From the IMG/VR virus record IMGVR_UViG_3300006097_000020, positions 1 to 39,347 of that record: DNA of 39,347 nt; one strand, 5' to 3'. This stretch comes from a virus. Positions 20,948-38,618 of this stretch are shown piece by piece (positions within the stretch are counted from its first letter, which is position 1; each line of letters starts with the position of its first letter). The position numbers and the translations under genes were made by a program. The notes beneath the pieces are model-generated. The model was not told the DNA's origin. It did not search any database and saw only the letters and a list, made by a program, of their open reading frames with translations.

Positions 20948-22247
20948 TAAAGAATTCTTTCTGTGTTTTTAAATCAAAATAAAATCTCATCAAAAGAGCA
21001 TCACGCCAATCCGGAGAACGTCCAATCATTTTTTTTATTTCATCTTTGCCAACCAACTTTTTTTTACCTTCCGCGTCGTTAGTTATTCGCTTAAGATGTT
21101 CAAGTTCCTCTGCAATTTCATCTTTTCTGTCGCCTGACAAGACTACCTCAATTGCCAATTTACTTTCATTTATACAATCGGCAAGAGCAAATCCGCATTG
21201 ACTTTGAAGGTTTGAAAAATTTTGTTTTTCTCCGTTGATTTCAAAAGGTGTTGCGTTGTTTACAAAGTTCTCACAATCTACCTGATCTGCTACACCTCCC
21301 CCGACACCGTCACTATCCACAACTGTCTGCCGATTTGGAATATTATATTGTTGTTGAAATTTCTTTATTCTGGCGCTTATTTCTGTTGTCTTTGAAATTT
21401 CCATAACAGCTGCGTCAATGACTACATATCCGTCCCATACTAAAATTATTGATTTATCGCTTCCAAAGCGCGCAGCGTCACAGGTTATATATTTCTTCCC
21501 TCGAACCCCTGCATTTGTGAAAATATCTACGATTGCATCGTATGATTCGATTAATCGAGCCGGATCATCGTCATATTCCCAGTTGCCATAATAAAGTCTT
21601 TGTCTGCTATTTTCGTCTAATCTAAGAAGAGAATCGAGATATGTTTTCGGAAGATATGGGTTTTCAGTTGGAAGAGATTGAACAAAAGCTCTGTTCCGTT
21701 TCAAGGTTTTTTCTTTTGCTGGCTTATAGAATTCTTTGTATCCCCATCCTTTCCAAGGATTACAAGTTCCAAGCGTTTTTGGAGTTAGACCAAAATCATT
21801 CAATCTATATCGTTGCCGCGATTGAACAATTTGCCAAGCTTTCCAACTGACCTGCGATGCTTCATCTATAAAGGCGCCAGTTATTTCAAGCGAACCCAGA
21901 GAGTCAAACTCCGGATCGGAAGGATATAAAAATAAGTCCTTAAGAATGATAGAAGAACCATTGTTGAAGTTAATAACACCCCCAACTGAATTGTATTTAT
22001 ATTGATTTGATATTCCGAGTTTATTAGAAAGGTCAAAAAATGTTGCGAGAGTTGTTTCTTTAAGAGTTTTTAATTTTGAGCGTCCGAGGAGCCACCTACT
22101 CCCTTTATATTTCTGTGCCTGCTCAATAGCCCTCAAGGCAAGCAATGCAGTTTTCCCACCTCCGGCCGCCCCTCCAAACAAAACCTCCGTAATTGCCGGA
22201 TGATTAAGATACCATACTGCCTCTCGTTGTTTTCCTAATAATTTCAT
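20940..22247 (-). CDS. terL: Terminase large subunit
   Basis: 435 aa. Walker A GGAAGGGKTA, a downstream acidic ATPase motif (AFIDEASQ) and a C-terminal nuclease-like half. Confidence 0.85.
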   Translation of the reverse strand: MKLLGKQREAVWYLNHPAITEVLFGGAAGGGKTALLALRAIEQAQKYKGSRWLLGRSKLKTLKETTLATFFDLSNKLGISNQYKYNSVGGVINFNNGSSIILKDLFLYPSDPEFDSLGSLEITGAFIDEASQVSWKAWQIVQSRQRYRLNDFGLTPKTLGTCNPWKGWGYKEFYKPAKEKTLKRNRAFVQSLPTENPYLPKTYLDSLLRLDENSRQRLYYGNWEYDDDPARLIESYDAIVDIFTNAGVRGKKYITCDAARFGSDKSIILVWDGYVVIDAAVMEISKTTEISARIKKFQQQYNIPNRQTVVDSDGVGGGVADQVDCENFVNNATPFEINGEKQNFSNLQSQCGFALADCINESKLAIEVVLSGDRKDEIAEELEHLKRITNDAEGKKKLVGKDEIKKMIGRSPDWRDALLMRFYFDLKTQKEFFIV

Positions 22248-22609
22248 TAATCAGGTTTTTTCCCGTCACCTAAGTTGATGATATTAATTGTTTCTCCGTT
22301 TGTGGTATGATCTATGTAATGCTGATTTAACTTCATGTGTTCTTCCTTTGTTGCAATCAATCTCATTGCAGCAATTTGCAAAGTTGGATTGTCACTCGCT
22401 ATCCATTTGTTAATCATATACGTTTTTGCTTTTACCCGGTTTTGAATGATAGCTTCCTTTATGTAGTCTATTTTGTCCAAATTGTACTTATATGCAGTTG
22501 CGCGGGAAAATGAAGTAAACGCAAAGCAATGATCGAAATAAACAATCTTGTGTTTTTTTATGACTTCGATTAATTCGTTTTCGTATTTTTTTTTACTTCC
22601 TCGTGCCAT
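22247..22609 (-). CDS. Terminase small subunit-like (HTH) protein
   Basis: 120 aa, directly upstream of TerL and overlapping it. The basic N-terminus and helical core are typical of small terminases in AT-rich phages. Confidence 0.5.
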   Translation of the reverse strand: MARGSKKKYENELIEVIKKHKIVYFDHCFAFTSFSRATAYKYNLDKIDYIKEAIIQNRVKAKTYMINKWIASDNPTLQIAAMRLIATKEEHMKLNQHYIDHTTNGETINIINLGDGKKPD

Positions 22610-22803
22610 TTTAGTTTATTTTAATCGGTTTTTTAGAATTCAAACTAAATTGCTGCTTATCAATAAATGTAGCCCAAACTTCTTTGGCTGTGTATTTATC
22701 TGCAAATCTTAATAATTGAAAGACAAACTCCCGTCTTCATCTTTTCCGGCGTCATAATCTTCCCATGTCATGTTCCAGTCATCCATATCCATAATATATA
22801 ACT

Positions 22804-23574
22804 TTATTTGCGACCAAAATGTTTTCGCCAATCAACAAAGTGATGCGGACGTCCAAACCGAATTACAACATCTACATACTGTGGCCATACTTTTTGCAGC
22901 ATTTTAGCTTTCAAGAGTTTTTTGTCGTATGAGTTGTTCTTGTAGAGTTCAGTTTGATTACCACCTTTCATTTTGGCAACAGTCGATGTTTTATTTATTA
23001 AATAAAGCTGGCTTGAGGCTGTGATGCCCCCGTTATGCAATACTTGAAGACATAAGTCAACATCCTCATTATACTTAAGTCTCCATCTGTATTTAAGATT
23101 ATTTTTTATCAACAAAGCTGAGTAAACATGACAATTGATTTTAAATGCTTTTCGCGGCGGTTTAGTAGAAAAATATCTGTATTCAAAGCCAGATATATCG
23201 ATATTGTATTTATTAACAAAATCTTCAACGAATACTAAAGCCTCATTATAATCATATATGTTTTTTTTCTTTCCGCCCTGCCATTTGCAAAATCCTCTGA
23301 TGTTGTCATCGAACAACCAGTGATATTTGTGTCCATTTTTTTTTGCATGCTCCCAGCAATAATTCCTTGCAGGATAACTCCCAAGCCCTAAATCAGAAAA
23401 AGGCAATTTTAAAATCTTGCTTGAGTCAATTACTTCTGAATATTTTTTAAATTCATGTGGTTCGACAGCAATTAGATAATCAATTTGATGTTCGTCAAAA
23501 TATCTTGCTGTTATAGGATTATAGTATCGCCCTTTTGATATTACATAGACTGGGTATTTATGCTGACCTGCCAT
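22804..23574 (-). CDS. GT-A-like glycosyltransferase-type protein (tentative)
   Basis: 256 aa. The N-terminal beta-strand YPVYVISKGR, then HWLFDDNI (DxD-like) and later NEDVDL, resemble nucleotide-sugar transferase folds. Overlaps the ParB-like gene by 34 nt. Confidence 0.35.
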   Translation of the reverse strand: MAGQHKYPVYVISKGRYYNPITARYFDEHQIDYLIAVEPHEFKKYSEVIDSSKILKLPFSDLGLGSYPARNYCWEHAKKNGHKYHWLFDDNIRGFCKWQGGKKKNIYDYNEALVFVEDFVNKYNIDISGFEYRYFSTKPPRKAFKINCHVYSALLIKNNLKYRWRLKYNEDVDLCLQVLHNGGITASSQLYLINKTSTVAKMKGGNQTELYKNNSYDKKLLKAKMLQKVWPQYVDVVIRFGRPHHFVDWRKHFGRK

Positions 23575-24104
23575 GCCTGTCCTTGTTTTTTAGCATTTAT
23601 ATTATACTTTTTTAAATATCTTTCAGCAGCATCTTTGTTTTCAAAAATAAAAACGACTCTTTGAACGTCTGTTTTTGCACCAATTTCTCTAAGTTCTTCT
23701 TCATCTAACAGAATATCATCTTCTGACATTTCATTAGCATTATTCCATATACTAACATCTACGCCCCACTGATTAATCTCATCTACATTCCACTCAGATC
23801 TGATCATTTCCCAATCCCATTCCCCAAAATTTTCATTGTCGATTAAAATAAATCGACGTTGTTCTTCTTCTGTTAATTCTGATGCCTTCTTTATCCAGGT
23901 ATCAGGAATTTCTTTATATCCAAGATCAATTAAAGCCTTTAGCCGCTGATTGCCGCCTAATATCATATTATTATCGTCGACAACAATTGGCCTTAGGGCC
24001 ATCATTTTTGGAAATTCCGCAATAGATTTCTTTAATTTTTTAAATCTTTCATCTCTGATAAATCTCGGATTATCAGGATTTGGTTTTAAGTCTGAAATTT
24101 TCAT
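23541..24104 (-). CDS. ParB N-terminal (ParB/Srx) domain protein
   Basis: 187 aa. ISDLKPNPDNPRFI ... PIVVDDNNMILGGNQRLKALIDLG is the ParB-like nuclease/CTP-binding domain signature. Confidence 0.7.
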   Translation of the reverse strand: MKISDLKPNPDNPRFIRDERFKKLKKSIAEFPKMMALRPIVVDDNNMILGGNQRLKALIDLGYKEIPDTWIKKASELTEEEQRRFILIDNENFGEWDWEMIRSEWNVDEINQWGVDVSIWNNANEMSEDDILLDEEELREIGAKTDVQRVVFIFENKDAAERYLKKYNINAKKQGQAWQVSINTQSM

Positions 24105-24105
24105 C

Positions 24106-24279
24106 TCAAATGCATTCTTTTACGAAAAACAGGAATAAGACTAAAAACATTATCAAATTTACAATTCTATTTAGCCATTTCCAAATTTTTACGTTTTGTC
24201 TCTCGGTTTTGAGAGATACTCGGCGATGTGTATCTCTTATCATATCGCCGACTGTTGGAATCTCTTTGTTTGTTTTCAT
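24106..24279 (-). CDS. Small tail-anchored membrane protein (start trimmed to MKTNKE)
   Basis: The track ORF 24106..24357 has an N-terminal extension that is simply the translated 56-nt repeat block. The ATG at 24279 follows that block. C-terminal TM helix IVNLIMFLVLFLFFV. Confidence 0.45.
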   Translation of the reverse strand: MKTNKEIPTVGDMIRDTHRRVSLKTERQNVKIWKWLNRIVNLIMFLVLFLFFVKECI

Positions 24280-24285
24280 GGTTTT

Positions 24286-24341
24286 TTTATTTAACGATAA
24301 TTTATTATGCATCATTGACGCTATATATGTGTTATGCCTCA
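24286..24341. repeat. 56-nt intergenic repeat block, copy 1 (partner at 28014..28069)
   Basis: tttatttaacgataatttattatgcatcattgacgctatatatgtgttatgcctca matches the partner at 51/56 positions by hand alignment. Both copies sit immediately 5' of a small-gene start codon. Confidence 0.85.
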
Positions 24342-24580
24342 GCTTCAAAAACATCAATGCTTACAAAGGCTTCTTTTCTCAAGTATATTCCGTTTGTATA
24401 TTGATGTAAGAAACTGATTTGTTCATCCTTAGTCATTTTTTTAGATGATTTAAAGAAGCCTGTGCCAACAGTTCTACCGTTCTGTTTACTTGTAACCGAA
24501 AATCTATAACCAAAAGCCGAAGGCATAACACCGTGTATAGTGCATGGCTCGGTTTGTGTTTTATTTGATGTATTTTCCAT
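24332..24580 (-). CDS. Hypothetical protein
   Basis: 82-aa ORF. Its 5' end carries the recurrent TATACACGGTGTTATGCC motif, and its stop codon lies inside the 56-nt repeat block. Confidence 0.45.
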   Translation of the reverse strand: MENTSNKTQTEPCTIHGVMPSAFGYRFSVTSKQNGRTVGTGFFKSSKKMTKDEQISFLHQYTNGIYLRKEAFVSIDVFEAEA

Positions 24581-24676
24581 TATATTAATTTTTTACTTGT
24601 TCGATACTTTGGTGCTATTTATACGCCACGACACCATACACGTGGCACGTTAGAAAATATTTGCTTACGCGCAGTT

Positions 24677-24853
24677 CTAAGCCTTAAATTTAGCCCCAAC
24701 CACTCTCTCTAATTCCTCTAACTCATTTTTATTTAAAATCACCACGCTTTTATATCCATCAATAAACTGAGTTATTACAATAGATTTATCTGTATAATCA
24801 GCATATTTCCTTTTAGAAGTGTTCTCGCTTAATATTGTTATAGTTGTTTCCAT
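24677..24853 (-). CDS. Hypothetical protein (start trimmed to METTITIL)
   Basis: Starting at the ATG at 24853 removes a 59-nt overlap and leaves 1 nt after the upstream stop. Confidence 0.45.
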   Translation of the reverse strand: METTITILSENTSKRKYADYTDKSIVITQFIDGYKSVVILNKNELEELERVVGAKFKA

Positions 24854-24854
24854 T

Positions 24855-25079
24855 TCAGTCGGTTTTAATCCAATAATTCCAAATTCCTTGTGCCCACGAA
24901 TATGCGTAAACAAATGTCATTATTAATATTCCCCATTGCTCATTTTGGATCGTTGTATATACCCAAAATGGTTGTCCACACAATCCTAATATATAGCCCC
25001 ATCGTTTCCATTTTTCAGTTCTACTCACAAACCAAATTGCTGAAGCTCCAAAAATCATAATTGCTATTTGTGAAATCAT
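24855..25079 (-). CDS. Small 3-TM, Trp-rich membrane protein
   Basis: 74 aa with three hydrophobic helices and many Trp/Tyr (GQPFWVY, YAYSWAQGIWNYW). Function unknown. Confidence 0.5.
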   Translation of the reverse strand: MISQIAIMIFGASAIWFVSRTEKWKRWGYILGLCGQPFWVYTTIQNEQWGILIMTFVYAYSWAQGIWNYWIKTD

Positions 25080-25191
25080 CCCGCTAAACGTTTTCTAACA
25101 AGCTTGTAATATGCCATGCCTGTTAAGTTAGTGCCGTTTTTTTTCTGTATGAGGCTTGCACGGCACATACAAGCCGGGACGTTGGCAGCAA

Positions 25192-25374
25192 TTAAGAATA
25201 CTCAATCACCACCACATCCATAGTATCATCTTCTTCGGGTGCGTTTGCGTCCCACAACTCTATCTCTTTAACCGTGTAGGCTTTCATATAGTCAAACTCT
25301 TCACCTTGCTGAATCATTACCTCTTTTTCTGGGTCTTGCTTTTGAAGCTCTGCAATCAATTCTTTTACTTTCAT
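25192..25374 (-). CDS. Small acidic hypothetical protein (start trimmed to MKVKEL)
   Basis: The track start at 25398 is a TTG inside an inverted-repeat arm. The first ATG is at 25374. Confidence 0.45.
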   Translation of the reverse strand: MKVKELIAELQKQDPEKEVMIQQGEEFDYMKAYTVKEIELWDANAPEEDDTMDVVVIEYS

Positions 25375-25480
25375 CTGATTAAATTTAACTGCTGCCAACA
25401 GGTCGGTATAAACAAGCCGCCGACAGCTATTTACAAATTTTGAACAGACTTACAAGGCGGCCTGTTCATACCGCCATAGC

Positions 25481-25510
25481 GTTGGCAGCACATTAAAACG
25501 ATTGCACAAC
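25481..25510 (-). repeat. Intergenic hairpin, family copy A (loop ATTAAAACG on the plus strand)
   Basis: gttggca(25481..25487) pairs with tgc-a-caac (25503..25510) with one bulge. The loop contains attaaaacg. Flanking sequence 25491..25578 is about 77% identical to copy B by hand alignment. Confidence 0.7.
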
Positions 25511-25573
25511 ATGCAATATAAAACATGCTTAGCGTCGTGCTTCGTAGTATCGTTTGTGCTAAATTCACCATAA

Positions 25574-25993
25574 TTAAATTTTTTCTTTACCCACGCTCTC
25601 AAAATAGAATATTCCGTCAAATGGCTTTGTTGGAGTAATTCCAAAATATGAAGCCACTTTATTTAAATATTCCTTTTTGCGTTTAGATTTTTCAGTTCTT
25701 GGATTCTTTGGTTTATCCAATCTTTCGTGCAATCCGCCTAAAAACCAAGTTCTAAATGTTTCCAAGTCTAAAGACCCTTTATAGTGGTTAATTATTTTCT
25801 GTACAGGCACAAGATTTTCATCACAATGAGCATCAGGAAACATTGAAGTTCCATCCCACCAATTTCTAACAAGTGGCTTTATATGTTCAACTTGCCAATC
25901 ATCTTCAAGTGGCGTTCCTGAATAAGCACAAAGCCCACCAAACTTTTGCTTAATTTCTTCTCTTTGTTTTTTACTGATATATCCCACACTCAA
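25574..25993 (-). CDS. HNH endonuclease
   Basis: 139 aa. GGLCAYSG...WQVEHIKP...DENLVPVQKIINHYK gives the His-Asn-(His/Asn) beta-beta-alpha-metal signature. The track start is a TTG, so the true start is uncertain. Confidence 0.65.
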   Translation of the reverse strand: MSVGYISKKQREEIKQKFGGLCAYSGTPLEDDWQVEHIKPLVRNWWDGTSMFPDAHCDENLVPVQKIINHYKGSLDLETFRTWFLGGLHERLDKPKNPRTEKSKRKKEYLNKVASYFGITPTKPFDGIFYFESVGKEKI

Positions 25994-26056
25994 AAAATTT
26001 AATTATTACTGTTGTTCTTCGATTCAAACTTTGTGCTGTAAATCCGCCCATACTAA

Positions 26057-26095
26057 GGCATAACATTGTGTATAAGAAATAGGGGCTGTTGTGCC
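26057..26095 (-). repeat. Intergenic hairpin using the same GGCAyAACA / TGTTGTGCC arms (copy G)
   Basis: ggcataaca (26057..26065) and tgttgtgcc (26087..26095) form a 9-bp stem (one G:U in RNA) around a 21-nt loop that contains TATA. Confidence 0.6.
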
Positions 26096-26182
26096 ACCAT
26101 TCAAGGATGTTAATGAATTGAGTTGTACACCTCGCATCAAAGCCGTTAGCCAAATTCCCCTACTTCTCATACACAAGTACCG

Positions 26183-26497
26183 TTAGGCTTCATTTTGCCC
26201 AACGCTCTGAATATCATCTCTTAATCGGTGCATCCATCTATAATAATGGTCAGGTAAGAATATCCGCTGTTTTCGTTCGTCAAAGTCAACCATTACACCC
26301 CATCCGCATTCACACAAAAAGGCGAAGTGATAAAGGAATTTTGTAAACGGCCCAATCATTTCACCTGTCATTGTTGAATTGCACACCTCATTTTGATAAT
26401 CTTCGTCATCTAACCAGCGGGTAATTTCCTGCTTTGCTATTTGTTCCCACGATTTCAATTTACGTGGTTCATCTACTTTGTATTTCGGTTCATTCAT
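26183..26497 (-). CDS. Hypothetical protein
   Basis: 104-aa ORF. No motif recognised. Its stop lies inside GCCTAACGG. Confidence 0.5.
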   Translation of the reverse strand: MNEPKYKVDEPRKLKSWEQIAKQEITRWLDDEDYQNEVCNSTMTGEMIGPFTKFLYHFAFLCECGWGVMVDFDERKQRIFLPDHYYRWMHRLRDDIQSVGQNEA

Positions 26498-26590
26498 ATT
26501 TCAGTTATTTAATTCCAACGCTAAAAACGAAAGCCTAACAGCACCTATACGTCAGCTTCCTATCGTCAGCCGAACGCATAGCTGCATCAC

Positions 26591-26620
26591 GTTGTGGCGC
26601 ATTAAAACGGCGCCCACAAC
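26591..26620 (-). repeat. Intergenic hairpin, family copy C
   Basis: gttgtggcgc (26591..26600), loop attaaaacg (26601..26609), gcgcccacaac (26610..26620). This is a 10-bp stem with a one-base bulge and the same loop as copies A and B. Confidence 0.7.
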
Positions 26621-26995
26621 AGCAATCTAAAATATACTTACCCGAAAGCAACGAATGCCCAACAATGGGTATATTGCATGGCGGGGTTTCTGCTTGTATT
26701 TGAGTTTCTTTCATCTATCTAAGTTTTTGTTTGTGGACATCTGTTCGGCTTTGAATCCGCCACTGTTCATACCCGCAGCCGTGAGCGTCTGCATAAATTC
26801 ATGCATTTCTATTTTCTTTGAGTTTTTCCAATCGGTTCTACGATCATCTGAATTTTACAATTTTATTCAATCTATGAAAAAGAGAAATTGCTTCTTTCTC
26901 TCTCATCGCTGAAGTCAGTTGTTTTGCTCCGTCGAAAACTTCATATAACCCTTTACTTGTCTTACTGTTTCTAATGTTTAAAGATTGATATAATT

Positions 26996-27415
26996 TCATG
27001 ATTTCTGATATTTATTGATTATTTTAACAATTTCAAAATGTCTGGAAGGAATGGTTTTTTTTGTTAACAAGATATATCGATTTTGATTTTCGAAAATTTT
27101 ACCATGCCAACGTGGTTTGTCATTAATTAAGTAGATTTCTTTCATAAAGACTTTTCCAAGAAAACGTTCTATGCAGGCGCCTTTTGATTGTTTCCAGTCC
27201 GGGATCAATAACACTTTGTCAGATTTCAAAACGTTAAAGAAAGCAGGTATCATATAGAATAACCACCTTTTTATTCCTAAGAAAGGCTTAACATAGATAG
27301 GGTTTATAATTTTTACACGACCAAAATCTTTTCGAATTCTGGCTTCGTAGGAGACAAATTTGGTTATGTAGTTTTCATCTCCACTTATTTTCCCTGAAAT
27401 GTAAATTGTTTTCAT
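26996..27415 (-). CDS. DUF4406-like (nucleoside 2-deoxyribosyltransferase-like superfamily) protein
   Basis: 139 aa. MKTIYISGKISGD ... INP ... LKSDKVLLIPDWKQSKGACIE follows the DUF4406 pattern (iYisGpitG ... NP ... cD.v..l.gW..S.Ga..E). Confidence 0.5.
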   Translation of the reverse strand: MKTIYISGKISGDENYITKFVSYEARIRKDFGRVKIINPIYVKPFLGIKRWLFYMIPAFFNVLKSDKVLLIPDWKQSKGACIERFLGKVFMKEIYLINDKPRWHGKIFENQNRYILLTKKTIPSRHFEIVKIINKYQKS

Positions 27416-27417
27416 AT

Positions 27418-27621
27418 TTATTTAAATTCGTGAAAGCGTCTAAATTCATCTCCGTAAACTTCAACGCCTTTGATCTTTTCAAGCGTCGGTATAATGTTTC
27501 TATCTTTAATCTTAATCCACCTCGATACAAGACACTTAGTTCCAATTCTTCTATCAAGTGGTATCTTCTCAATATGTCTTTTAATATCCTCTATGTCGTA
27601 ATTCTCTGGCATAAGCATCAA
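27418..27621 (-). CDS. Hypothetical protein
   Basis: 67-aa ORF ending 2 nt before the next start. Preferred over the overlapping frame 27375..27572. Confidence 0.4.
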   Translation of the reverse strand: MMLMPENYDIEDIKRHIEKIPLDRRIGTKCLVSRWIKIKDRNIIPTLEKIKGVEVYGDEFRRFHEFK

Positions 27622-27835
27622 TTTTTATGAGGTTAATCATAACTCTGAATGCAAAGAATAAAGACAAAAGGACTACTAATATCTGCCATATTCCTGATGC
27701 CGGGAATATGGTTCCCGCAAATGAAATTAAGACAAATGAAATTAATGCATTGAAAAAGCATTTCCTCAATTGAATTATTGTCATTCGTCTAAGTTCTTTT
27801 TTTGATAGCTTCTTGAAGTCAACTATTGTTTTCAT
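27581..27835 (-). CDS. Small 2-TM membrane protein
   Basis: 84 aa with helices ALISFVLISFAGTIF and ILVVLLSLFFAFRVMI. Confidence 0.45.
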   Translation of the reverse strand: MKTIVDFKKLSKKELRRMTIIQLRKCFFNALISFVLISFAGTIFPASGIWQILVVLLSLFFAFRVMINLIKIDAYARELRHRGY

Positions 27836-27839
27836 ATTG

Positions 27840-28007
27840 TTAATGTTCTTTGTTTTTAGGACTTAAATACTTCTCAGGACACTGTCCTAATTCGTATAAC
27901 CGACAAATGTTTGTCCCGTTGCCGCTAAACGGCACAAAACATTCTCTTTTTCTGCATTTATCAGAAAGAACCAAATACTCTTTTTTGTTGTATCTTATTG
28001 TAGCCAT
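27840..28007 (-). CDS. Small Cys-rich protein (start trimmed to MATIRY)
   Basis: The 47 N-terminal codons of track ORF 27840..28148 are the translated intergenic repeat (copy B plus the 56-nt block). The ATG at 28007 follows the block, as at 24279. Confidence 0.45.
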   Translation of the reverse strand: MATIRYNKKEYLVLSDKCRKRECFVPFSGNGTNICRLYELGQCPEKYLSPKNKEH

Positions 28008-28013
28008 AATTTC

Positions 28014-28069
28014 TTTATTTAACAATAATTGATTATGCGTCATTGACGCTATATATGTGTTGTGCTTCA
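28014..28069. repeat. 56-nt intergenic repeat block, copy 2 (partner at 24286..24341)
   Basis: tttatttaacaataattgattatgcgtcattgacgctatatatgtgttgtgcttca. Contains the perfect 13-bp palindrome gcgtcattgacgc at 28037..28049. Confidence 0.85.
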
Positions 28070-28097
28070 TTAAAACGAAAGCACAACATGGTATATA
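28050..28097 (-). repeat. Intergenic hairpin, family copy B (longest stem)
   Basis: tgttgtgctt (28058..28067) pairs perfectly with aagcacaaca (28079..28088). The loop is cattaaaacga. Outer tatata arms (28050..28055 and 28092..28097) can extend the stem. Confidence 0.75.
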
Positions 28098-28151
28098 AGC
28101 CATGCTTAGGTCTGTGCTTCGTAGTGATGTTTGTACAAACTTGCCCATAAT

Positions 28152-28901
28152 TTAAAAAGCCCCTCCCGCTTCGGTTTTTTCAAAACCGTTTGGTATAAGT
28201 TCTGTAAGCAATTCACGTTCCTGTGTAAAAATAGGTGGTTCTGTACTTACCCATCTTGTTCTCAATGCACCGTTCTTCTCGTATTGTTCCTTTACAATTA
28301 ATCTACCCCGTTTAAGTTTAGGTTCATAATCGTTCCAGTTAATACCTTTTTGAAAACACATTTCTTGCATTTCACCTATGTCTTTTCCGTGCAATTCTCT
28401 TGGGCTATATAGGTATTGTGCAACGCTACTAATACTATTCCTTATTGTGTCTTGCTGTCTCCAAATCAAGTAATTCTCAACTTCAACGGCTGTTGGTATT
28501 GTAAACACACGGCTGTCAAATAAAGCAATCTTATTTGGTCGTAATTCATTAAATTTTGCAGTTGCCATACTTGCACTTATACTTGCCATTTTTTGTATAT
28601 TTCCATCAAACCAAGCATTAGTACCTAATTTTTCAAAATCAGTAAGTAAAATACTTATTTCATCACTTTGCACAAATGCCAATTTTGCTCCCTGAATATT
28701 CTTGCACATATAGCAAGCAGTTTCATCCATATCTGAAATTAGTTTTGCATCAAAAGGTCTCTCAAGCCCTCTTGTGTAAGTATGAAATGCTTTGCCATCT
28801 ACACGTATAATTGTGTACGTTCTTCTTGGGAGTAAGCTTCGAGTTCTATTTTCGTAAAACTCCTTCATTCTATCTCCTAAGCTATCTTTTTTATTTGCCA
28901 T
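28152..28901 (-). CDS. Thg1-like protein (tRNA-His guanylyltransferase family, 3'-5' nucleotidyltransferase)
   Basis: 249 aa. MANKKDSLGDRMKEFYE...YTIIRVDGKAFHTYT...AFVQSDEISILL reproduces the Thg1/TLP N-terminal palm motifs (RxDGxxFH and SDE carboxylates). Confidence 0.7.
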   Translation of the reverse strand: MANKKDSLGDRMKEFYENRTRSLLPRRTYTIIRVDGKAFHTYTRGLERPFDAKLISDMDETACYMCKNIQGAKLAFVQSDEISILLTDFEKLGTNAWFDGNIQKMASISASMATAKFNELRPNKIALFDSRVFTIPTAVEVENYLIWRQQDTIRNSISSVAQYLYSPRELHGKDIGEMQEMCFQKGINWNDYEPKLKRGRLIVKEQYEKNGALRTRWVSTEPPIFTQERELLTELIPNGFEKTEAGGAF

Positions 28902-28997
28902 CGCTTCGCTTTTTAAATTATTACTGTTGTTCTTTGTAGTTAGGTTTGTTGGTTAATCCGCACAGCTCATATACCTGTCCGTTAGAAACAAGCTCCG

Positions 28998-29879
28998 TCA
29001 TTCACATAAATGATAGTAGCTTGAACATGAAATAGGGCTGTCCTCTGCGAATAAATCAATAGTCGCATTTTTAGCTTCTAAATATCGTTTAACATCTTCG
29101 GCGGTTGTGTATTTTTTCGCAGTTCTTTTGCATACACCTGACTGGCTGTGTTCAGGTACAAAGTCAATTTTAAAGAAAGAGGAACCTATTCGCTTTTCAT
29201 GCTCAATAATTTCATCAAACTTTTTCGGGTATCGCTTTAATATTTCGTAAACTTCACGATGCCCTGACATAATGCAAGGGAAACAACCAACTCGCTTAAA
29301 CCCTTCTTTGTAAAGCGTATTAGGTTTCTGACCGTTTTCAATAATGTAATCAATAACTTCCTGACCAGACCAGTTGAAAATTGGTCTTAAAATGTCATCA
29401 GAGTATTCCTCACACCACATTTTCACATCTTTTTTTCTGTATGTATGCGTTTTGCCATTGTCATTATACGGTTCAAAATAGTATTTAAAATACCTGCATT
29501 GTCGCTGCATTAAACTTCTATTATGGCTTTCCTGCGCTCTAATTCCCTGTATTATCAACAAGTGTTCTTTTTGCTTTAGAACATAGTCAATAAAAGGGAT
29601 AGATTTTAATTCAGAAGTGCAGAACCGGGCCATCGTTGACGGAAATCTTTTTTTCTTTTCTGCCAGGTCAATCATTCCATCGTATTTTTTGCTTTTGACA
29701 GTAACAAGTTTTACACCCAATTCAGAAGTAGTTTCTTTAATATGCTTATAGGTAACTGGATGTTCCCATCCTGTATCACAAAATACAGCTTCCACATTTT
29801 TAGCACCGTATTTTTTGACCGTCCACAAAAGGCAGGCTTGTGAATCCTTACCTCCTGAATATGCTACTAATATTTTCAT
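28998..29879 (-). CDS. PP-loop ATP pyrophosphatase, PAPS reductase / DndC-like family
   Basis: 293 aa. MKILVAYSGGKDSQACL (SGGxDS PP-loop), FCTSELKSIPF, GIRAQESHNR and RVGCFPC (similar to the DndC-type GCWxC). Confidence 0.7.
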   Translation of the reverse strand: MKILVAYSGGKDSQACLLWTVKKYGAKNVEAVFCDTGWEHPVTYKHIKETTSELGVKLVTVKSKKYDGMIDLAEKKKRFPSTMARFCTSELKSIPFIDYVLKQKEHLLIIQGIRAQESHNRSLMQRQCRYFKYYFEPYNDNGKTHTYRKKDVKMWCEEYSDDILRPIFNWSGQEVIDYIIENGQKPNTLYKEGFKRVGCFPCIMSGHREVYEILKRYPKKFDEIIEHEKRIGSSFFKIDFVPEHSQSGVCKRTAKKYTTAEDVKRYLEAKNATIDLFAEDSPISCSSYYHLCE

Positions 29880-29966
29880 AAAAATTTGATTTTAATTTGG
29901 CCGCCAGTTTCTAACAAGCGGTCATAAACAACTCCGCTACGCTCCGCAGTTCATACCGCCAGCCCG

Positions 29967-30581
29967 TTAGTGGCAATTAAAGTACAGGTCAACTTGTTGC
30001 TTCTCGCTTTGTATGCCAATGTCGGTGTAACTTACATTAGGTTTTTTATCTATGTCGGCTTTAAAACAGCATGGTATATTTACCAAATGTATTTCCGAAT
30101 ATCCGTGTAGCATTTTAAGGCAGTCGCTTATTTTAGCGTGTGAGTGTACACAAACAACCACCGCACTATTATTTTCTCCTTCAAATGTTAATTCTTCTGC
30201 TTTGTTTTTATATGTTTCTAAGCGTTTAATATTCCATTGTTTCTCCCGCATTTGTGGGTCTATGCTTTTAACATTCCATTTCGTCAAGCAAGCTATTAGC
30301 GCACCTGTCCGTGGGCTGTGTCCATCACCTACTACATACACATCAACATCGTCAGTACGGCTTACATATTTATCAATTAGGTGGTCTTGTATTGCCACAA
30401 ATGCTCCCACACTCTCGGTTATTTCTTTAATATTCGGAAATACTTTCGCGCTCATTAGCAACGGGGCGGTATTCATTTTAAAAAACCTATGTAAATATCG
30501 GTTGTCATAGAAATAACTGCCACTAACACCGTGTAATACGGCATTGCCTTGTGGCTTTTTTGTTACTGTATCTGTATTCAT
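29967..30581 (-). CDS. Rossmann-fold methyltransferase-like protein (uncertain)
   Basis: The track start at 30602 is a TTG. The first ATG (MNTDTV) is at 30581. VDVYVVGDGHSPRTGALIA...SIDP resembles SAM-binding motif I and the post-I acidic residue. VVCVHSHA...PCC follows. Confidence 0.35.
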   Translation of the reverse strand: MNTDTVTKKPQGNAVLHGVSGSYFYDNRYLHRFFKMNTAPLLMSAKVFPNIKEITESVGAFVAIQDHLIDKYVSRTDDVDVYVVGDGHSPRTGALIACLTKWNVKSIDPQMREKQWNIKRLETYKNKAEELTFEGENNSAVVVCVHSHAKISDCLKMLHGYSEIHLVNIPCCFKADIDKKPNVSYTDIGIQSEKQQVDLYFNCH

Positions 30582-30646
30582 ATCTTTAGTTCTTTTAATC
30601 AAATTTGTACTGTATTTAAAGCGGCAACGACCGCATACACAAACCG

Positions 30647-31429
30647 TTATGCGCCATGCCGAAAGACCAAGATACTTTCGTGTTGCACCCTGCTTTTTGC
30701 ATTTTGCCCGAAACCCATTCTTGGAGTTTCGATTTTAATTTCATCAATAAGTTTCATTCCAAAATCTAACAATGTTTGTTTATGCCAATCAACCACGTTT
30801 ACAATTTGCCCTTTTCTAATATGGTCAGAAACATTCACAATCATCAATCCATTTGGCTTTAATACGCGCAAACATTCCTTGTAAATCTCAATATGCTTTT
30901 GTCGGTACTTTACACCCCATTGCATCCTTCCAGTATTCTCTTCATTTAATGGTCTTCCCAAGAAATGTCTGTAAGTAATGCGCTTGCTTCCATCTTTCGC
31001 TTCAAAGTGGTCTGCCATTCTGTTACCATAAGTAGGGCTTGTACATATAGCATCAAATTCGTGATTCGCAAATTGCAAATTAGCCGCATCACCTATACAC
31101 CATTCATCAACATCATATTCAGACGCATTAACCCATTCAGGTTCAATTTCATTGCATACCACTTTTCCGCTAAATCCGTAATCCTTAATAAGAGCAAGTT
31201 TCCCGACACCGCCGAAAGGGTCAAGTACGTTACTACAATCTTTTAGTAATTCCGCAAATTTTGGAATAAAACTATCAGTGTATTTTGCAGGGTGCTTTAC
31301 GGAAGAAGGCACAGGCGCATAACACGTGCTATAAGCAATAGCGGTGTCCGTGTTATCCGAAAGTTCCTGCTTTTTATTATCGTTTGTCATATTATGAAAG
31401 TTTATCGTTTTTAATCCGCTACTGCTCAT
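30647..31429 (-). CDS. DNA methyltransferase (N6-adenine / N4-cytosine type)
   Basis: 260 aa. VLDPFGGVGK (motif I, FxGxG-like) precedes AICTSPTYGN (motif IV, a (D/S)PP(Y/F)-like variant SPTY). LKPNGLMIVNV lies downstream. Confidence 0.65.
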   Translation of the reverse strand: MSSSGLKTINFHNMTNDNKKQELSDNTDTAIAYSTCYAPVPSSVKHPAKYTDSFIPKFAELLKDCSNVLDPFGGVGKLALIKDYGFSGKVVCNEIEPEWVNASEYDVDEWCIGDAANLQFANHEFDAICTSPTYGNRMADHFEAKDGSKRITYRHFLGRPLNEENTGRMQWGVKYRQKHIEIYKECLRVLKPNGLMIVNVSDHIRKGQIVNVVDWHKQTLLDFGMKLIDEIKIETPRMGFGQNAKSRVQHESILVFRHGA

Positions 31430-31456
31430 AGCACCATTCGTTAGAAGTAATAAATC

Positions 31457-31690
31457 TTATAAATCTCTTAACTTCTTAGCCCATTCAGAATAAGGTGTGA
31501 TATTTTTATCTTTTAATCCGCTTTTTGAAGAAGATTTACCACTTCTAACATCAGATATGTTTAATTTACCTATCACAAATTCACAAAAGTCTATAATATC
31601 TTCTTGTGCATCCCAAACTTCATCACAACTTTCCTTAATTACCTCACCGAAGTAATAATCAAATAATTCATTTATTTTATCTCTTTTCAT
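31457..31690 (-). CDS. Hypothetical protein
   Basis: 77-aa ORF. No motif recognised. Confidence 0.45.
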   Translation of the reverse strand: MKRDKINELFDYYFGEVIKESCDEVWDAQEDIIDFCEFVIGKLNISDVRSGKSSSKSGLKDKNITPYSEWAKKLRDL

Positions 31691-31732
31691 AATCTATATA
31701 TTTAATTTTAAACTAAACATATCTGAGAACCG

Positions 31733-32143
31733 TTAGCTACAAGTACTACTTTCCGTTTTCAATTCAAGTTCAGTTCCAGTGAGCGCAAAAAATAAATTCT
31801 GCAACTCGTGAACATATCGTATATCTCTCAAAGTGATGCTTTCCGTATCATTGTATGCCCATGAAACCAAATATCCATCGAACTTTTCAGGTTTGTATAA
31901 ATTAAATGAACACCAAAAACCATCAACTTTTATATGCCAACAATTATCTTTTTTATGAACAAATCCAAATTTTTGAAGCCATCCGTCAGTCAATGGTATT
32001 CCCTCCCAAGTGTCTAAAGCCAAATTGTGTTTCTTGTCAGTTGGCATCTGCTTAAACGAAATAGGCCAAACCTGAAAAGGTTCTTTGTTTGTTGGATACA
32101 CCGTGCGAACCCAATTCCCAATCCGTAAATTTTTTGCTTCCAT
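31733..32143 (-). CDS. Hypothetical protein (start trimmed to MEAKNLRIGNW)
   Basis: The ATG at 32143 avoids overlap with the unlisted 57-aa ORF upstream. Trp-rich globular sequence. Confidence 0.45.
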   Translation of the reverse strand: MEAKNLRIGNWVRTVYPTNKEPFQVWPISFKQMPTDKKHNLALDTWEGIPLTDGWLQKFGFVHKKDNCWHIKVDGFWCSFNLYKPEKFDGYLVSWAYNDTESITLRDIRYVHELQNLFFALTGTELELKTESSTCS

Positions 32144-32156
32144 TTTCGTTTTCAAT

Positions 32157-32330
32157 TTAAAGTTTGTACCTCGTTTCCTTACTATCTTTCCTGATAATTT
32201 CACGCTTAATTTCGTAAGCGTCAGGATACTTTTTGAGACACTCTTTTCTCGCCTGACTGATTGTTTTTGATTTTAAAAGTACAGTTCTGTCAGGACAGAT
32301 AGCATATAAATTCTTTACAATTTTAGTCAT
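32157..32330 (-). CDS. Hypothetical 57-aa protein (not in the supplied track)
   Basis: Hand translation gives MTKIVKNLYAICPDRTVLLKSKTISQARKECLKKYPDAYEIKREIIRKDSKETRYKL. Its ATG overlaps the upstream TGA (ATGA at 32327..32330). Confidence 0.45.
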   Translation of the reverse strand: MTKIVKNLYAICPDRTVLLKSKTISQARKECLKKYPDAYEIKREIIRKDSKETRYKL

Positions 32331-32527
32331 AATCCATAGTTTAAAATGTCAATAATTTCATGTTCCTCATCTGGCGTAATGTCTATTTCGTTAAATTCTA
32401 TGTCTGAAACAGATATTATCTCAATTTCAGAGAATTCTGGTGGATTGTAATACGTTGATGGGATATATTCACTTCGTTTATACTCAACGTATATCTTTTC
32501 GCCCTTGTAATTAATCCAGTCAATCAT
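32327..32527 (-). CDS. Small acidic hypothetical protein
   Basis: 66-aa ORF in operon register. Confidence 0.45.
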   Translation of the reverse strand: MIDWINYKGEKIYVEYKRSEYIPSTYYNPPEFSEIEIISVSDIEFNEIDITPDEEHEIIDILNYGL

Positions 32528-32539
32528 ATCTATTGTTTT

Positions 32540-32830
32540 TCATAATGCACTTAACGGTACACGTAATATTTGCTTTTTATTTATAGCCACTAAAGCGCAT
32601 TTGCATTGTGGTTTATTAATCCAATAGCTGTTTTCTACAAGTTCACCATCGAAAGTTGTATCATTTTCAGACATGAAATGTGTAGCTATAAGCATTCTAT
32701 AACCGACAAAAATTCCTTTAGTTTCTTTTATCGGTTCTTCAATCCAGCGCTTACAGTATTTCGAATAGGAAATGTCTTCCTCAACTCTTATGTACCTTGT
32801 TCTAATAACAACATTATCGCCTAAATTCAT
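32540..32830 (-). CDS. Hypothetical protein
   Basis: 96-aa ORF downstream of the helicase gene. Confidence 0.45.
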   Translation of the reverse strand: MNLGDNVVIRTRYIRVEEDISYSKYCKRWIEEPIKETKGIFVGYRMLIATHFMSENDTTFDGELVENSYWINKPQCKCALVAINKKQILRVPLSAL

Positions 32831-32899
32831 ATCTCTTATTTTTTGTTTAAAGTTAATCTGTTAATTCTTTAATTACAACACAAAAAAAGTTAATGTTAA

Positions 32900-34222
32900 T
32901 TAATATGGAGCGTCTTCGTCATATTGATGAATAATATCATAAAATTTTGTGATAGTGTCGTTAACGTGTACTCTGGCCATGCCCGTCTGCCCGTTCCTGT
33001 TTTTAGCAATCAAAATTTCAGCTATATTCTTAAACTCGTCGTCATCCGGGAAATAGTACGCAGGGCGATGTGGAAAAATGATAATATCTGCATCCTGTTC
33101 ACTCGCTCCTGATTCTCGTAAATCTGACATTCGTGGTCTATAGGCGCTTTCTTTTCTATTCTCAGGGCCCCGGTTCAGCTGAGTAACTAAAAAAATCGGT
33201 ACCTGGAATTCTTTTGCAATTAATTTACAGCTTCTGGTTATTTGAGCAACTTGCTGTTCGCGAGGAATTGACTTATCTGTCTGCATCAGCTGCATGTAGT
33301 CAATAACGACAGCTTTTATATCGTGATTCTTTTTGAAGATTTTTATTTTTGCTTTTAAATGAGATATAGATACATTCGGTGTATCATCTATGAATAATTG
33401 CCAATTTTTCATATAAGAAATGGCTTCTTCGATTAATTTCCATTGATCGATTGTCGGGTTGTCAAGATCATATCGCGAAAGTCCTGTTTCACGCTGAATG
33501 TTCCTGTTCACGAGTTGACGACGATGCATTTCAAGCGAAAAAAAGAGAACGGCACCTTCCGTGGATGCGATATGTGCTGTTTCATTCAGCACAAAAGCCG
33601 TCTTGCCCATACCGGGTCTTGCAGCGACAATAATCAAATCACCATTTTCCCAGAGTGGTATAAAAGTTCTAACCGCTCTTAGATGAGGTTTTATGCCGTA
33701 CTTGTTAATATCTGAATTTTGTCTTTCCTGAATAACTTCGACAGCTTCTTTTAAATTTTCATCGTAATTCTTGATGTTTGATTTGTTGTCAATTTCTGAC
33801 AGAACGTTGTCTATTAATACAGACGTCTTATCAATAAGAATATCTAAATCAGTAGTGCTGTCAAGACCAATTTTTTTAAGACGCTCAATCTCAAGGAGTA
33901 ATTTACGTCTGATTGATAAGTCTTTCAAAATTCGAGCGTGATATTCAATATGCGCCGCTGAGGCTACATTTTCAGTCAATTTTGAAAGATCAAATGCTGA
34001 AACTTTCACACCGCTTTCATTCAGCTTTGTGTGAATAGTGATTATATCAATAGCTTTGTTTAATACAAATAAATCCTGAATTGCTTCATAAATTTTTGCA
34101 TGTGTCTCTTTGTAAAAATCACTCGATTCAATAATTTCTGAAACGATTAGATAAGCATCTTTTTCAAGGATTAATGCTCCTAAGACTGCTTCCTCCGTTT
34201 TTATATCATAGAATAAATTCAT
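32900..34222 (-). CDS. dnaB: Replicative DNA helicase (DnaB family)
   Basis: 440 aa. N-terminal domain EEAVLGALIL. Walker A AARPGMGKTAF, FFSLEM, IDYMQLM and RESGASEQDADII are typical of DnaB. Confidence 0.85.
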   Translation of the reverse strand: MNLFYDIKTEEAVLGALILEKDAYLIVSEIIESSDFYKETHAKIYEAIQDLFVLNKAIDIITIHTKLNESGVKVSAFDLSKLTENVASAAHIEYHARILKDLSIRRKLLLEIERLKKIGLDSTTDLDILIDKTSVLIDNVLSEIDNKSNIKNYDENLKEAVEVIQERQNSDINKYGIKPHLRAVRTFIPLWENGDLIIVAARPGMGKTAFVLNETAHIASTEGAVLFFSLEMHRRQLVNRNIQRETGLSRYDLDNPTIDQWKLIEEAISYMKNWQLFIDDTPNVSISHLKAKIKIFKKNHDIKAVVIDYMQLMQTDKSIPREQQVAQITRSCKLIAKEFQVPIFLVTQLNRGPENRKESAYRPRMSDLRESGASEQDADIIIFPHRPAYYFPDDDEFKNIAEILIAKNRNGQTGMARVHVNDTITKFYDIIHQYDEDAPY

Positions 34223-34336
34223 ATAATATCTATTTTTGACGCATTAGACGTTATTTTTTTGTGTTTTTTTCTTTTTATGATATGTAATTAGGACAATGAA
34301 AAATAAATTGATTAAACAGCCTTATTTTGTATTTTT

Positions 34337-35008
34337 TCAAATAACTCTGTATTGATTTGATCTAAATGCTTTTTTTACTTTTTCTATATCATCGTTTTTG
34401 TCGTTCTTTTCCCAGGTTCTGACAGCAGCTTTCCAGTCCTTCATCTTATTCTTTCCAATCATCCAGTTTTTTGCTGTGTAAAAGTCGAACCAACGCTCAG
34501 CATCCACATCGTTGTTTCTTTCCTTACAATATTTTTTGACATCATCTAAGGAAGGTGGTGTAAATCTTGGCGTTTTAGCCACACTATTATTCTTTTCATT
34601 CTTTTCATTCTTTTCATTCTTGTTTGTTGTTAGTTGCTTGTTAGTTGCTTGTTGGTTGCTTGTTAGTTGCTTGTTAGGTTGCTTGTTGTCTTCGCCAATT
34701 GCACGATTGTAATTATCATAGTTATAGATAGTTATTAACGAAAATCGATTGTTAGTTTGCCTGTTGATTTCTCCTGTTTTTTCTAATTTTTTTAAACAAG
34801 ACCTTAATGTCTGAATTGAAATATTTGTTTCTTCATGAAGTTGCTTCAATCCAGTTATCAATTGCCCTCTTTTAACTTCAATTCCACGCCAGTTAATTGT
34901 TTCGTGATTAGCCTTAAGCAGTAGGTGAACGAATAAGTGTACCATTTCACTTATATCGTACCATTCCCAATCAATGAATTTCCTGTGTAATTTGATCCAT
35001 CCTTCCAT
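34337..35008 (-). CDS. Replication initiator / replisome organiser (winged-HTH N-domain), start trimmed to MEGWIKLHRK
   Basis: MEGWIKLHRKFIDWEWY... followed by a wHTH-like segment (QTLRSCLKKLEKTGEI), a low-complexity linker that holds the iterons, and a C-terminal domain DDVKKYCKERNN...WFDFYTAKNW. The 20 upstream codons of the track ORF are a translated terminator hairpin. Confidence 0.6.
   Translation of the reverse strand: MEGWIKLHRKFIDWEWYDISEMVHLFVHLLLKANHETINWRGIEVKRGQLITGLKQLHEETNISIQTLRSCLKKLEKTGEINRQTNNRFSLITIYNYDNYNRAIGEDNKQPNKQLTSNQQATNKQLTTNKNEKNEKNEKNNSVAKTPRFTPPSLDDVKKYCKERNNDVDAERWFDFYTAKNWMIGKNKMKDWKAAVRTWEKNDKNDDIEKVKKAFRSNQYRVI
34591..34617. repeat. 3 x 9-nt direct repeat (tcttttcat)
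   Basis: Copies at 34591..34599, 34600..34608 and 34609..34617. They encode NEKNEKNEK in the initiator linker. Confidence 0.8.
34631..34686. repeat. Five tandem 11-nt iteron-like repeats (tagttgcttgt)
   Basis: Units at 34631, 34642, 34653 (tggttgcttgt), 34664 and 34675 (12 nt, taggttgcttgt). The period is not a multiple of 3, so the repeat is read in all three frames of the initiator ORF. Confidence 0.8.
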
Positions 35009-35011
35009 AGC

Positions 35012-35093
35012 AAAAAAAAATACCCCCAAAAAGCGAAACAACACGGTCACATGGGCATCCACTCCCAACCGTGTTGTTGTTCGCCTAAGGGGG
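35012..35093 (-). terminator. Long imperfect hairpin followed by a T9 run (terminator-like), just upstream of the initiator ATG
   Basis: Plus-strand ccccc (35023..35027) and gcgaaacaacacgg (35033..35046) pair with ccgtgttgttgttcgc (35069..35084) and ggggg (35089..35093). The A9 run at 35012..35020 becomes a U-tract after the stem on the minus strand. Confidence 0.55.
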
Positions 35094-35157
35094 CTATTGA
35101 ATTATTATTTAATCCTGATTTTTTCATTGTGGATGTATTTGTAGAGGCAAATATAAC

Positions 35158-35361
35158 TTATTTTTCTTGAATATCACAAATGAAATACCGAAACTTATCT
35201 TTCGCCGTGCCCAAATGGCTGCCAACTGGGACTTGTTTACCGATGATACTACCATCTCTTGTGCGCCAAATCCCAGTATAAGGCCAATCCCCGGTTGCGT
35301 GATAAGCAACATCCTTATCTTTTACAAAATCCCATAATTCTTCGTTCGTTACTTCCCTCAT
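35158..35361 (-). CDS. Hypothetical protein
   Basis: 67-aa ORF overlapping the NinG-like stop by 4 nt. Preferred over frame 35124..35312. Confidence 0.45.
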   Translation of the reverse strand: MREVTNEELWDFVKDKDVAYHATGDWPYTGIWRTRDGSIIGKQVPVGSHLGTAKDKFRYFICDIQEK

Positions 35362-36000: not shown

Positions 36001-36060
36001 TTTAAAAGTTTATTAGTTCTTTGTCAAATTCCTCAATCGACAACCAATGAAGAGAGACAA

Positions 36061-37810: not shown

Positions 37811-37813
37811 TTT

Positions 37814-38175: not shown

Positions 38176-38207
38176 GGTAAAATAATCTAAATCTTTATAG
38201 TTTTCAT

Positions 38208-38249: not shown

Positions 38250-38255
38250 CTCTTT

Positions 38256-38579: not shown

Positions 38580-38618
38580 TGAATTTTGTGCTCCCTGACA
38601 GCCGGGAGCGGGCTTTAA

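Follow-up and report, generated by a model that had tools for sequence, protein, structure and literature searches.

A gene for a Thg1-like protein (TLP) of the bacterial type lies on the minus strand of IMG/VR virus record IMGVR_UViG_3300006097_000020, the whole stretch of which (39,347 nucleotides) was analysed and is referred to here as the window. The gene, at positions 28152–28901, starts with ATG and encodes 249 amino acids; the plus-strand frame of the same interval is riddled with stops. An earlier note on this DNA had described a Thg1-like open reading frame (ORF) of this length with intact catalytic motifs, and the ORF proved to be real. The three segments on which that description rested are all present and in order (GDRMKEFYE at residues 9–17, RVDGKAFH at residues 33–40, which includes D35, and QSDEIS at residues 78–83, which includes D80 and E81), and D35, D80 and E81 map to the catalytic carboxylates of BtTLP, the TLP of Bacillus thuringiensis. 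The Pfam search proposed in the same note was clearly positive, with the Thg1 model PF04446 scoring 94.4 bits against a cut-off of 29.2 (E = 6.7e-27) and residues 10–136 matching model positions 2–130 of 130. Likewise, the protein matched PHROG 4717, annotated as 'tRNA-His guanylyltransferase', at E = 3e-85 and BtTLP (PDB 4kgk_A) at E = 3.7e-68, with 53.7% identity over residues 6–235, and archaeal TLP and eukaryotic Thg1 structures aligned to it at E-values of 1e-8 to 1e-12. The scores of the Pfam, PHROG and BtTLP matches exclude a chance resemblance. NCBIfam contained no model matching the TLP, and PADLOC gave no defence-system hit for it.

The roles of individual residues were taken from the structure paper on BtTLP (PMC3701042) and transferred to the window protein by alignment. 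The catalytic carboxylates, which are D30, D75 and E76 in BtTLP and D29, D76 and E77 in hTHG1 (PMC3701042), correspond to D35, D80 and E81, in the right order and invariant in 32 relatives. Identity also extends to the clamp holding the triphosphate of the incoming NTP (R28, K99′, R131 and R16′ in BtTLP; R33, K104, R131 and R21 in the window protein), to the supporting residues (E12 and R147; E17 and R148) and to residues of the activation site (S74, H35 and T38; S79, H40 and T43). The sole changes at mapped sites are the conservative replacement of K43 by R48 and that of M158 by S159. TLPs of the bacterial and archaeal type form homotetramers (dimers of dimers) in which an adjacent monomer completes the active sites, and the residues acting in trans in BtTLP, R16′ and K99′, are among those kept (as R21 and K104). 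In the complex of MaTLP with tRNA, R136 and N137 read the tRNA 5′ end and C72, while a flexible β-hairpin with a conserved arginine (R215) touches the tRNA elbow and gauges the length of the acceptor stem (PMC4820378). R154 and N155 of the window protein align with the former pair and are thus putative readers of the tRNA 5′ end, and a β-hairpin is predicted at approximately residues 200–220 (strands at 200–209 and 212–220), carrying an invariant R214 that would be the counterpart of MaTLP R215. All the mapped positions of the NTP site, the carboxylates and the tRNA contacts are invariant in the alignment of the 32 relatives.

A comparison of an AlphaFold model with TLP structures, also suggested in the earlier note, gave a concordant result. 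The AlphaFold2 monomer model, built from the 32-sequence alignment (mean pLDDT 81.7, pTM 0.78), retrieved only Thg1 and TLP structures as its top 32 Foldseek hits in the PDB, with E-values down to 6e-23 and BtTLP as the best hit (TM approximately 0.8, normalised to the target), and the next hits, at E > 0.03, were unrelated proteins. Beyond the fold, the protein ends in a disordered C-terminal tail of 12 residues. The window protein is thus almost certainly a TLP with an intact active site. It is also under strong purifying selection: dN/dS ranged from 0.04 to 0.12 across phage copies in different genomes and was 0.038, at a dS of 0.36, for the most recent pair of copies.

The TLP gene resides in a small phage. 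Positions 1–55 of the window are an exact repeat of positions 39293–39347, and this 55-bp overlap of the ends points to a circular assembly and a complete genome of approximately 39,292 bp. The window is the complete genome (39.3 kb) of a small tailed phage, a siphovirus, with genes for a large terminase, portal, head morphogenesis protein, major head protein and tape measure, as well as for a DnaB-like helicase, a DnaD-like loader, ERF and NinG, all on the minus strand. The terminase is nearest to those of Cellulophaga phage phi10:1 and Flavobacterium phage 11b (52–53% amino acid identity), which indicates a host among the Bacteroidota. The GC content of the TLP gene (35.5%) is close to that of the genome (36.9%). 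In agreement with the earlier note, no tRNA genes were detected in the window by ARAGORN or Rfam, and Rfam gave no match anywhere in the window, including the repeated element flanking the TLP gene that is described below. RNA ligase, PNK, HAD_SAK/HAD phosphatase and YqeY genes were not found by BLASTP clustering against the copies near relatives of the TLP, nor by Pfam and PHROGs on approximately 45 window ORFs, a scan in which the small ORFs of the structural module were not all included. Since the phage has no tRNA, ligase or kinase gene, the TLP must act on RNAs of the host, among which tRNAs are the most likely substrates. Megablast of positions 20000–39347 against 50,697 phage records gave no match, and the exact 249-residue protein was absent from the assembly index.

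More than 7,900 database proteins matched the window protein at E < 1e-10, the best 120 of them being 74–93% identical. Two narrow peptide patterns yielded at least 193 confirmed stretches in IMG/VR, and 80 loci, on contigs of 5–430 kb, were analysed by clustering the ORFs within 10 kb of the TLP gene and annotating the clusters with Pfam; the resulting co-occurrence counts are descriptive, lack a matched background and include some loci of related lineages. Of 84 loci, 27 had an RNA ligase family within 10 kb (de-replication at 90% left 23 of 64 groups), and in 13 of these 27 the ligase gene ended 0–1.4 kb upstream of the TLP gene. HAD_SAK_2, the 'Swiss-army-knife RNA repair' HAD family, and the GatB-like YqeY were found at 16 loci each, and GIY-YIG/NUMOD3 genes at 10. 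Genes of NAD salvage also recurred (NAMPT at 20 loci, PRPP synthetase at 17 and NADAR at 16), and several of these functions meet on a 234-kb phage-like contig encoding an 89%-identical TLP, together with an RNA ligase, a PNKP (AAA_33 and HAD_PNKP), NUDIX, NADAR and NAMPT. Genes related to NAD salvage and ADP-ribose, NUDIX among them, and R2K ATP-grasp genes likewise recur near the TLP gene in large phage contigs (L017 and many of the loci L030–L099). The TLP gene of these genomes seems to have its place in a region devoted to counter-defence or auxiliary metabolism. tRNA genes lay within 10 kb at 16 of 80 loci, and in five of these the TLP gene is bordered by arrays of 10–35 tRNAs. In the tRNA arrays of L062 and L094 ARAGORN called two tRNA(UCA) as 'SeC' (L062) and two tRNA(CUA) as 'Pyl' (L094); these are possible suppressor tRNAs, hinting at stop-codon recoding in those large phages.

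A conserved operon was found in two genomes from different orders of Bacteroidota, a Sphingobacteriales metagenome-assembled genome (MAG; L004, 6201–14164) and the isolate Xanthocytophaga flavus (L006, 188–5487). It comprises genes for a T4-type RNA ligase (RNA_lig_T4_1, Rnl1), Macro, TLP, tRNA-Arg(UCU), RtcB, ADP-ribosylglycohydrolase and DUF1152, and its TLPs are 69–72% identical to the window protein. The tRNA-Arg(UCU) gene stands between TLP and RtcB in both genomes, an odd place for a tRNA gene inside an RNA-repair operon. Anantharaman et al. had already linked Thg1 to Macro and RNA ligase in 2010 (PMC2904730), an association that the contexts of the relatives reproduce and extend; these contexts support a role of the clade in RNA or tRNA repair.

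The name given to PHROG 4717 implies a different function, namely that the enzyme adds or restores G-1 on tRNA-His of the host or of a co-infecting phage. TLPs are able to add G-1 opposite C73 (PMC4820378, PMC6471195), most GenBank records of phage TLPs bear this name, and in one relative, on a 299-kb viral contig (L074, 10001–10928), a phage tRNA-His(GUG) gene, one of an array of 11 tRNAs, has its start 24 nt beyond the stop codon of the TLP. However, HINNLYN, the motif by which eukaryotic Thg1 recognises tRNA-His in an anticodon-dependent manner (PMC6471195), is absent. Where CaThg1 has HINNLYN in the alignments, the window protein has IRNSISS, akin to SKNSISM in BtTLP, so that it should be regarded as a TLP rather than a bona fide tRNA-His guanylyltransferase, the database name notwithstanding. 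Moreover, the window phage lacks tRNA-His along with all other tRNA genes, adjacency to tRNA-His was seen at just 1 of 80 loci, and the tRNA-His at that locus already has its G-1 encoded in the genome, opposite C73. The BtTLP clade acts on many tRNAs and prefers repair of their 5′ ends (PMC3061083, PMC3701042). Addition of G-1 is therefore unlikely to be what the enzyme is for, and it was rejected as the main role on the ground that the sole adjacent phage tRNA-His encodes G-1 already.

The closest copy of the TLP gene (97% identical in amino acids, 93% in nucleotides; locus L001) comes from a contig of 59.6 kb that was binned with a Prolixibacteraceae MAG; there it directly follows a gene for a GIY-YIG endonuclease. 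The stretch common to that contig and the window spans positions 28050–28984 only, that is, the ORF with 83 nt upstream and approximately 100 nt downstream (flanks at 7918–8000 and 8742–8843 in L001), and none of the other window ORFs had a homologue flanking the TLP gene in any relative. Both flanks recur at the HNH endonuclease gene of the window (Table 1). The upstream flank contains the exact 19-mer AAGAACAACAGTAATAATT, a second copy of which lies upstream of the HNH gene; these two matches, where 0.06 were expected, are the only ones in the genome. The upstream flank is probably the expression signal of the cassette itself. The downstream flank is an 88-nt element with a terminator-like appearance, an imperfect hairpin (approximately 28075–28122) followed by UUUUAAU, and is 95% identical to the L001 copy and 78% identical to the second copy after the HNH gene. 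The predicted fold of the hairpin had a z-score of −3.25 for the L001 copy and −1.8 for the window copy, and a simple terminator scan did not call it. A sigma-70 promoter scan found fewer promoter-like sites than in shuffled sequences, and the shared core ACAAAC...CTACRAAG did not reach significance in a degenerate motif search.

Table 1. Positions of the TLP gene, its flanking elements and neighbouring features in the window.
Feature	Position	Strand	Basis
Bacterial-type TLP gene (249 aa, ATG start)	28152–28901	minus	Pfam, PDB, PHROG, residues, model, dN/dS
Upstream flank travelling with the TLP gene	28902–28984	minus	Within the 93%-identical L001 block
19-mer, copy upstream of the TLP gene	28916–28934		Exact match
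19-mer, copy upstream of the HNH gene	26001–26019		Exact match
Downstream 88-nt element travelling with the TLP gene	28068–28155	minus	Repeat comparison, fold prediction
HNH endonuclease gene	25574–25993	minus	PHROG 2118/1035
Upstream element of the HNH gene	25994–26045		
Downstream element copy of the HNH gene	25491–25578		
72-nt intergenic repeat, two copies	27998–28069 and 24270–24341		85% identity
ORF of 102 aa	27840–28148	minus	
DUF4406 (nucleoside deoxyribosyltransferase-like)	26996–27415		Pfam
PP-loop/PAPS-reductase-like (BrxP/SspD/DndC-like)	28998–29879		Pfam
Protein of 211 aa	29967–30602		
N6_N4 DNA methylase	30647–31429		Pfam
TET-associated glycosyltransferase (TAGT, 117 bits) and ParB-N protein	22804–23574 and 23541–24104		

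The TLP gene is thus an accessory cassette, complete in itself and horizontally mobile, with conserved 5′ and 3′ flanks of its own, and the HNH gene looks like its sister cassette. The shared flanks suggest that both are portable expression cassettes, whose spread homing endonucleases may have aided. A second intergenic repeat of 72 nt was also seen; its two copies stand directly upstream of small ORFs, and the one next to the TLP gene adjoins the 88-nt element, the two making up a composite block of approximately 160 nt in the intergenic region after the gene. Rfam did not match the 72-nt repeat, nor was a significant fold predicted for it. The 102-residue ORF following the TLP gene probably has its start placed too far upstream, which carries it through the repeated intergenic element, and the ATG at 28004 (54 aa) is a more plausible start; its N-terminal peptide recurs in other frames and ORFs because the DNA repeat recurs.

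Such mobility raises the question whether the gene is a recently acquired passenger, spread by recombination or by transfer assisted by homing endonucleases, and of little or no benefit to the phage. The 93%-identical copy behind a GIY-YIG gene in an unrelated genome, the matching flanks of the HNH gene, the GIY-YIG/NUMOD3 genes at 10 loci and the absence here of the usual repair partners would all fit this explanation. The signature of purifying selection, however, is visible even between the most recent copies, the ORF is intact with all its catalytic residues kept, and in GC content it does not depart from the genome. A mere passenger is accordingly very unlikely.

The earlier note had placed the gene among a PP-loop ATPase, DUF4406, two methyltransferase-type proteins and an HNH nuclease. 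The PP-loop protein, DUF4406 and one methylase were recognised by Pfam and the HNH nuclease by PHROGs only, while the second supposed methyltransferase, the 211-residue protein, had no significant match in Pfam, PHROGs, NCBIfam or other searches. Together with the TAGT and the ParB-N protein, the PP-loop/PAPS-reductase-like protein, DUF4406 and the N6_N4 methylase form an apparent DNA-hypermodification module, in the middle of which the 211-residue protein lies; no TET/JBP dioxygenase was identified. The TLP is not part of this module. Its flanks differed in every relative examined, and it was found within 6 kb of PAPS-reductase-like homologues in none of 80 phage loci, so that the neighbours in the window are uninformative on its function. 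None of these 80 PAPS-reductase-anchored loci was syntenic with the window, and an empty site was not found. A functional link between the TLP and its DNA-modification neighbours was rejected on the same grounds.

These findings also bear on a possible substrate other than tRNA. The TLP might extend, repair or cap (by App/Gpp activation) phage or host RNAs, such as mRNAs or small RNAs, at their 5′ ends, or possibly act on nucleic acid linked to the modification system; the earlier note had raised a novel 5′-extension activity on phage nucleic acid, which the varying flanks and the PAPS-reductase loci leave without support and which was rejected. RNA recognition by TLPs is broader than that by Thg1 (PMC6471195), the TLP stands here on its own with no tRNA genes or ligase found, and the known defences do not create 5′-truncated tRNAs. 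Against this, conservation extends to the elbow-binding hairpin and to the residues that read the 5′ end of the tRNA, the relatives adjoin tRNA arrays and tRNA- or RNA-repair enzymes, and no conserved linkage to DNA-modification genes was seen. A non-tRNA substrate hence appears rather unlikely.

The explanation that best accommodates these results as a whole, and which we hold to be reasonably probable, is that of a functional TLP of the bacterial type, carried on a mobile cassette and repairing the 5′ ends of host tRNAs. Templated 3′–5′ addition to 5′-truncated tRNAs has been demonstrated in vitro for BtTLP and MaTLP (PMC3061083, PMC4820378). By analogy, the enzyme would bind a tRNA whose acceptor stem is short of one or more 5′ nucleotides, activate a 5′-monophosphate end with ATP or GTP or use a 5′-triphosphate end directly, and then add nucleotides in the 3′–5′ direction, templated by the intact 3′ strand and with two metals held by D35 and D80. 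The β-hairpin at the tRNA elbow would measure the length of the stem and end the reaction. The substrates would be host tRNAs, which would thereby remain available for phage translation in the infected cell. The earlier note had likewise favoured tRNA 5′-end repair; the biochemistry of BtTLP (PMC3701042, PMC3061083) and the contexts of the relatives lend this weight, whereas the window neighbours on which it had also drawn do not. The particular role in this phage, 5′-end repair of host tRNAs, is about as likely as not. The enzymatic activity, the host-tRNA substrate and a benefit to the phage, be it counter-defence or quality control, are all presumed rather than observed.

Several points weigh against this reading. 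The Pfam model Thg1C (PF14413) matched the window protein below threshold (15.5 bits against a cut-off of 26.3; E = 0.02). The validated BtTLP, however, also falls below this cut-off in the equivalent region (20.4 bits), and the low score may reflect the model rather than the protein. The physiological role of bacterial TLPs is unsettled (PMC6471195), and a literature search returned no enzymatic or genetic study of any phage TLP. The usual partners of the relatives (RNA ligase, PNK/HAD, YqeY and tRNA genes) were not found in the window, which could mean a different use of the enzyme here, and the co-occurrence counts carry the limits given with them above. More important, perhaps, is the question of what would generate the substrate. 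The described antiphage tRNases cut the anticodon loop or stem (PrrC, VapC, colicin E5, PARIS, Cas13 and OLD), the D-loop (type I-A retrons), the T-loop (Cash), the 3′ strand of the acceptor stem (retron Eco2) or the CCA tail (Cas12a3), and none of the characterised antiphage nucleases is known to shorten the 5′ strand while keeping the 3′ template intact.

The counter-defence analogy drawn in the earlier note thus lacks a known attacker that leaves a 5′-truncated acceptor stem. An undescribed 5′-directed attack, spontaneous or exonucleolytic damage to the 5′ end, and a non-tRNA substrate remain as readings for the source of the substrate. That a lone TLP suffices as a counter-defence is a speculative and unlikely proposition; the enzyme would then reverse the trimming of tRNA acceptor stems on their 5′ side by a still undescribed class of immunity, a stress nuclease or an exonuclease. 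If true, the cassette would be a portable 'anti-tRNase' module whose distribution marks where such immunity exists, and the cut site would lie outside those of the known antiphage tRNases. If a 5′-directed attack on tRNA exists in Bacteroidota, the TLP gene would be a handle with which to find it. Otherwise, the gene is one more correctly annotated member of its family, with the misnomer 'tRNA-His guanylyltransferase' corrected to 'Thg1-like protein'. What bacterial and archaeal TLPs do physiologically has been a question ever since they were found to repair tRNA in vitro. The phage TLPs, being numerous (162 GenBank records and the IMG/VR stretches counted above), mobile and constrained, argue for a real role in infection. 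The window genome offers a convenient minimal case, since in a phage with no tRNA, ligase or kinase of its own any phenotype must come from the TLP alone, acting on host RNA.

TLP genes as such are not new to phages, and the novelty implied by the earlier note was overstated. They are carried by 162 of 50,697 deposited phage records, most under the name 'tRNA-His guanylyltransferase', restoration of tRNA 5′ ends by Thg1 has been predicted for jumbo phages (PMC7824862), and a tRNA-repair role has been proposed for the family (PMC2904730). The 2019 review of the family nowhere mentions phages or viruses (PMC6471195). The gene type and the repair hypothesis are thus already in the databases and the literature, and what is distinctive here is the solo, mobile setting in a small phage. 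The phages of PHROG 4717, for example Bacillus phages Bcp1, TsarBomba and G, Pseudomonas phage 201phi2-1, the Caulobacter CbK-like phages and the Lak phages, share with the window an accessory gene of the same family, with 27–53% identity to the window protein, and the closest deposited phage copy among the matches listed is 53% identical. In contrast to the window, the complete genomes among the 100 of 162 records listed are all at least 88 kb and mostly 100–600 kb in size, and such large TLP phages usually carry many tRNA genes and other RNA-repair enzymes.

In the Rnl1–Macro–TLP–RtcB operon the TLP comes from the phylum of the likely host and is one part of a multi-enzyme repair set, unlike the window TLP, which stands alone. 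The same holds in comparison with phage tRNA-repair toolkits, which are recognised by a co-encoded PNK/HAD phosphatase, an RNA ligase or RtcB, or tRNA genes, none of which was found in the window. In phage T4, Pnk and Rnl1 repair tRNA-Lys cleaved by PrrC. The likeness lies in a phage enzyme restoring host tRNA damaged during infection; the T4 enzymes, however, heal and seal a break in the anticodon loop, whereas the TLP would perform a templated 3′–5′ fill-in of a 5′-truncated acceptor stem, and the T4 case has a cognate host nuclease, for which no equivalent is known in the TLP case. Eukaryotic Thg1 (PDB 3OTB and 3WBZ) has the same fold and the same catalytic carboxylates, but with an identity of 20–27% and a HINNLYN motif that the window protein does not have, it represents another subfamily. 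The closest parallel is BtTLP (PDB 4KGK and 4KGM; Hyde et al. 2013, PMC3701042; Rao et al. 2011, PMC3061083). Among the structures retrieved it matched best, approximately 230 residues align between proteins of 249 and 245 amino acids, and the carboxylates, the nucleotidyl-transfer site and the TLP-type motif are shared; the window protein differs in R48, S159 and its disordered tail, in being encoded by a phage and in having an activity that is so far predicted.

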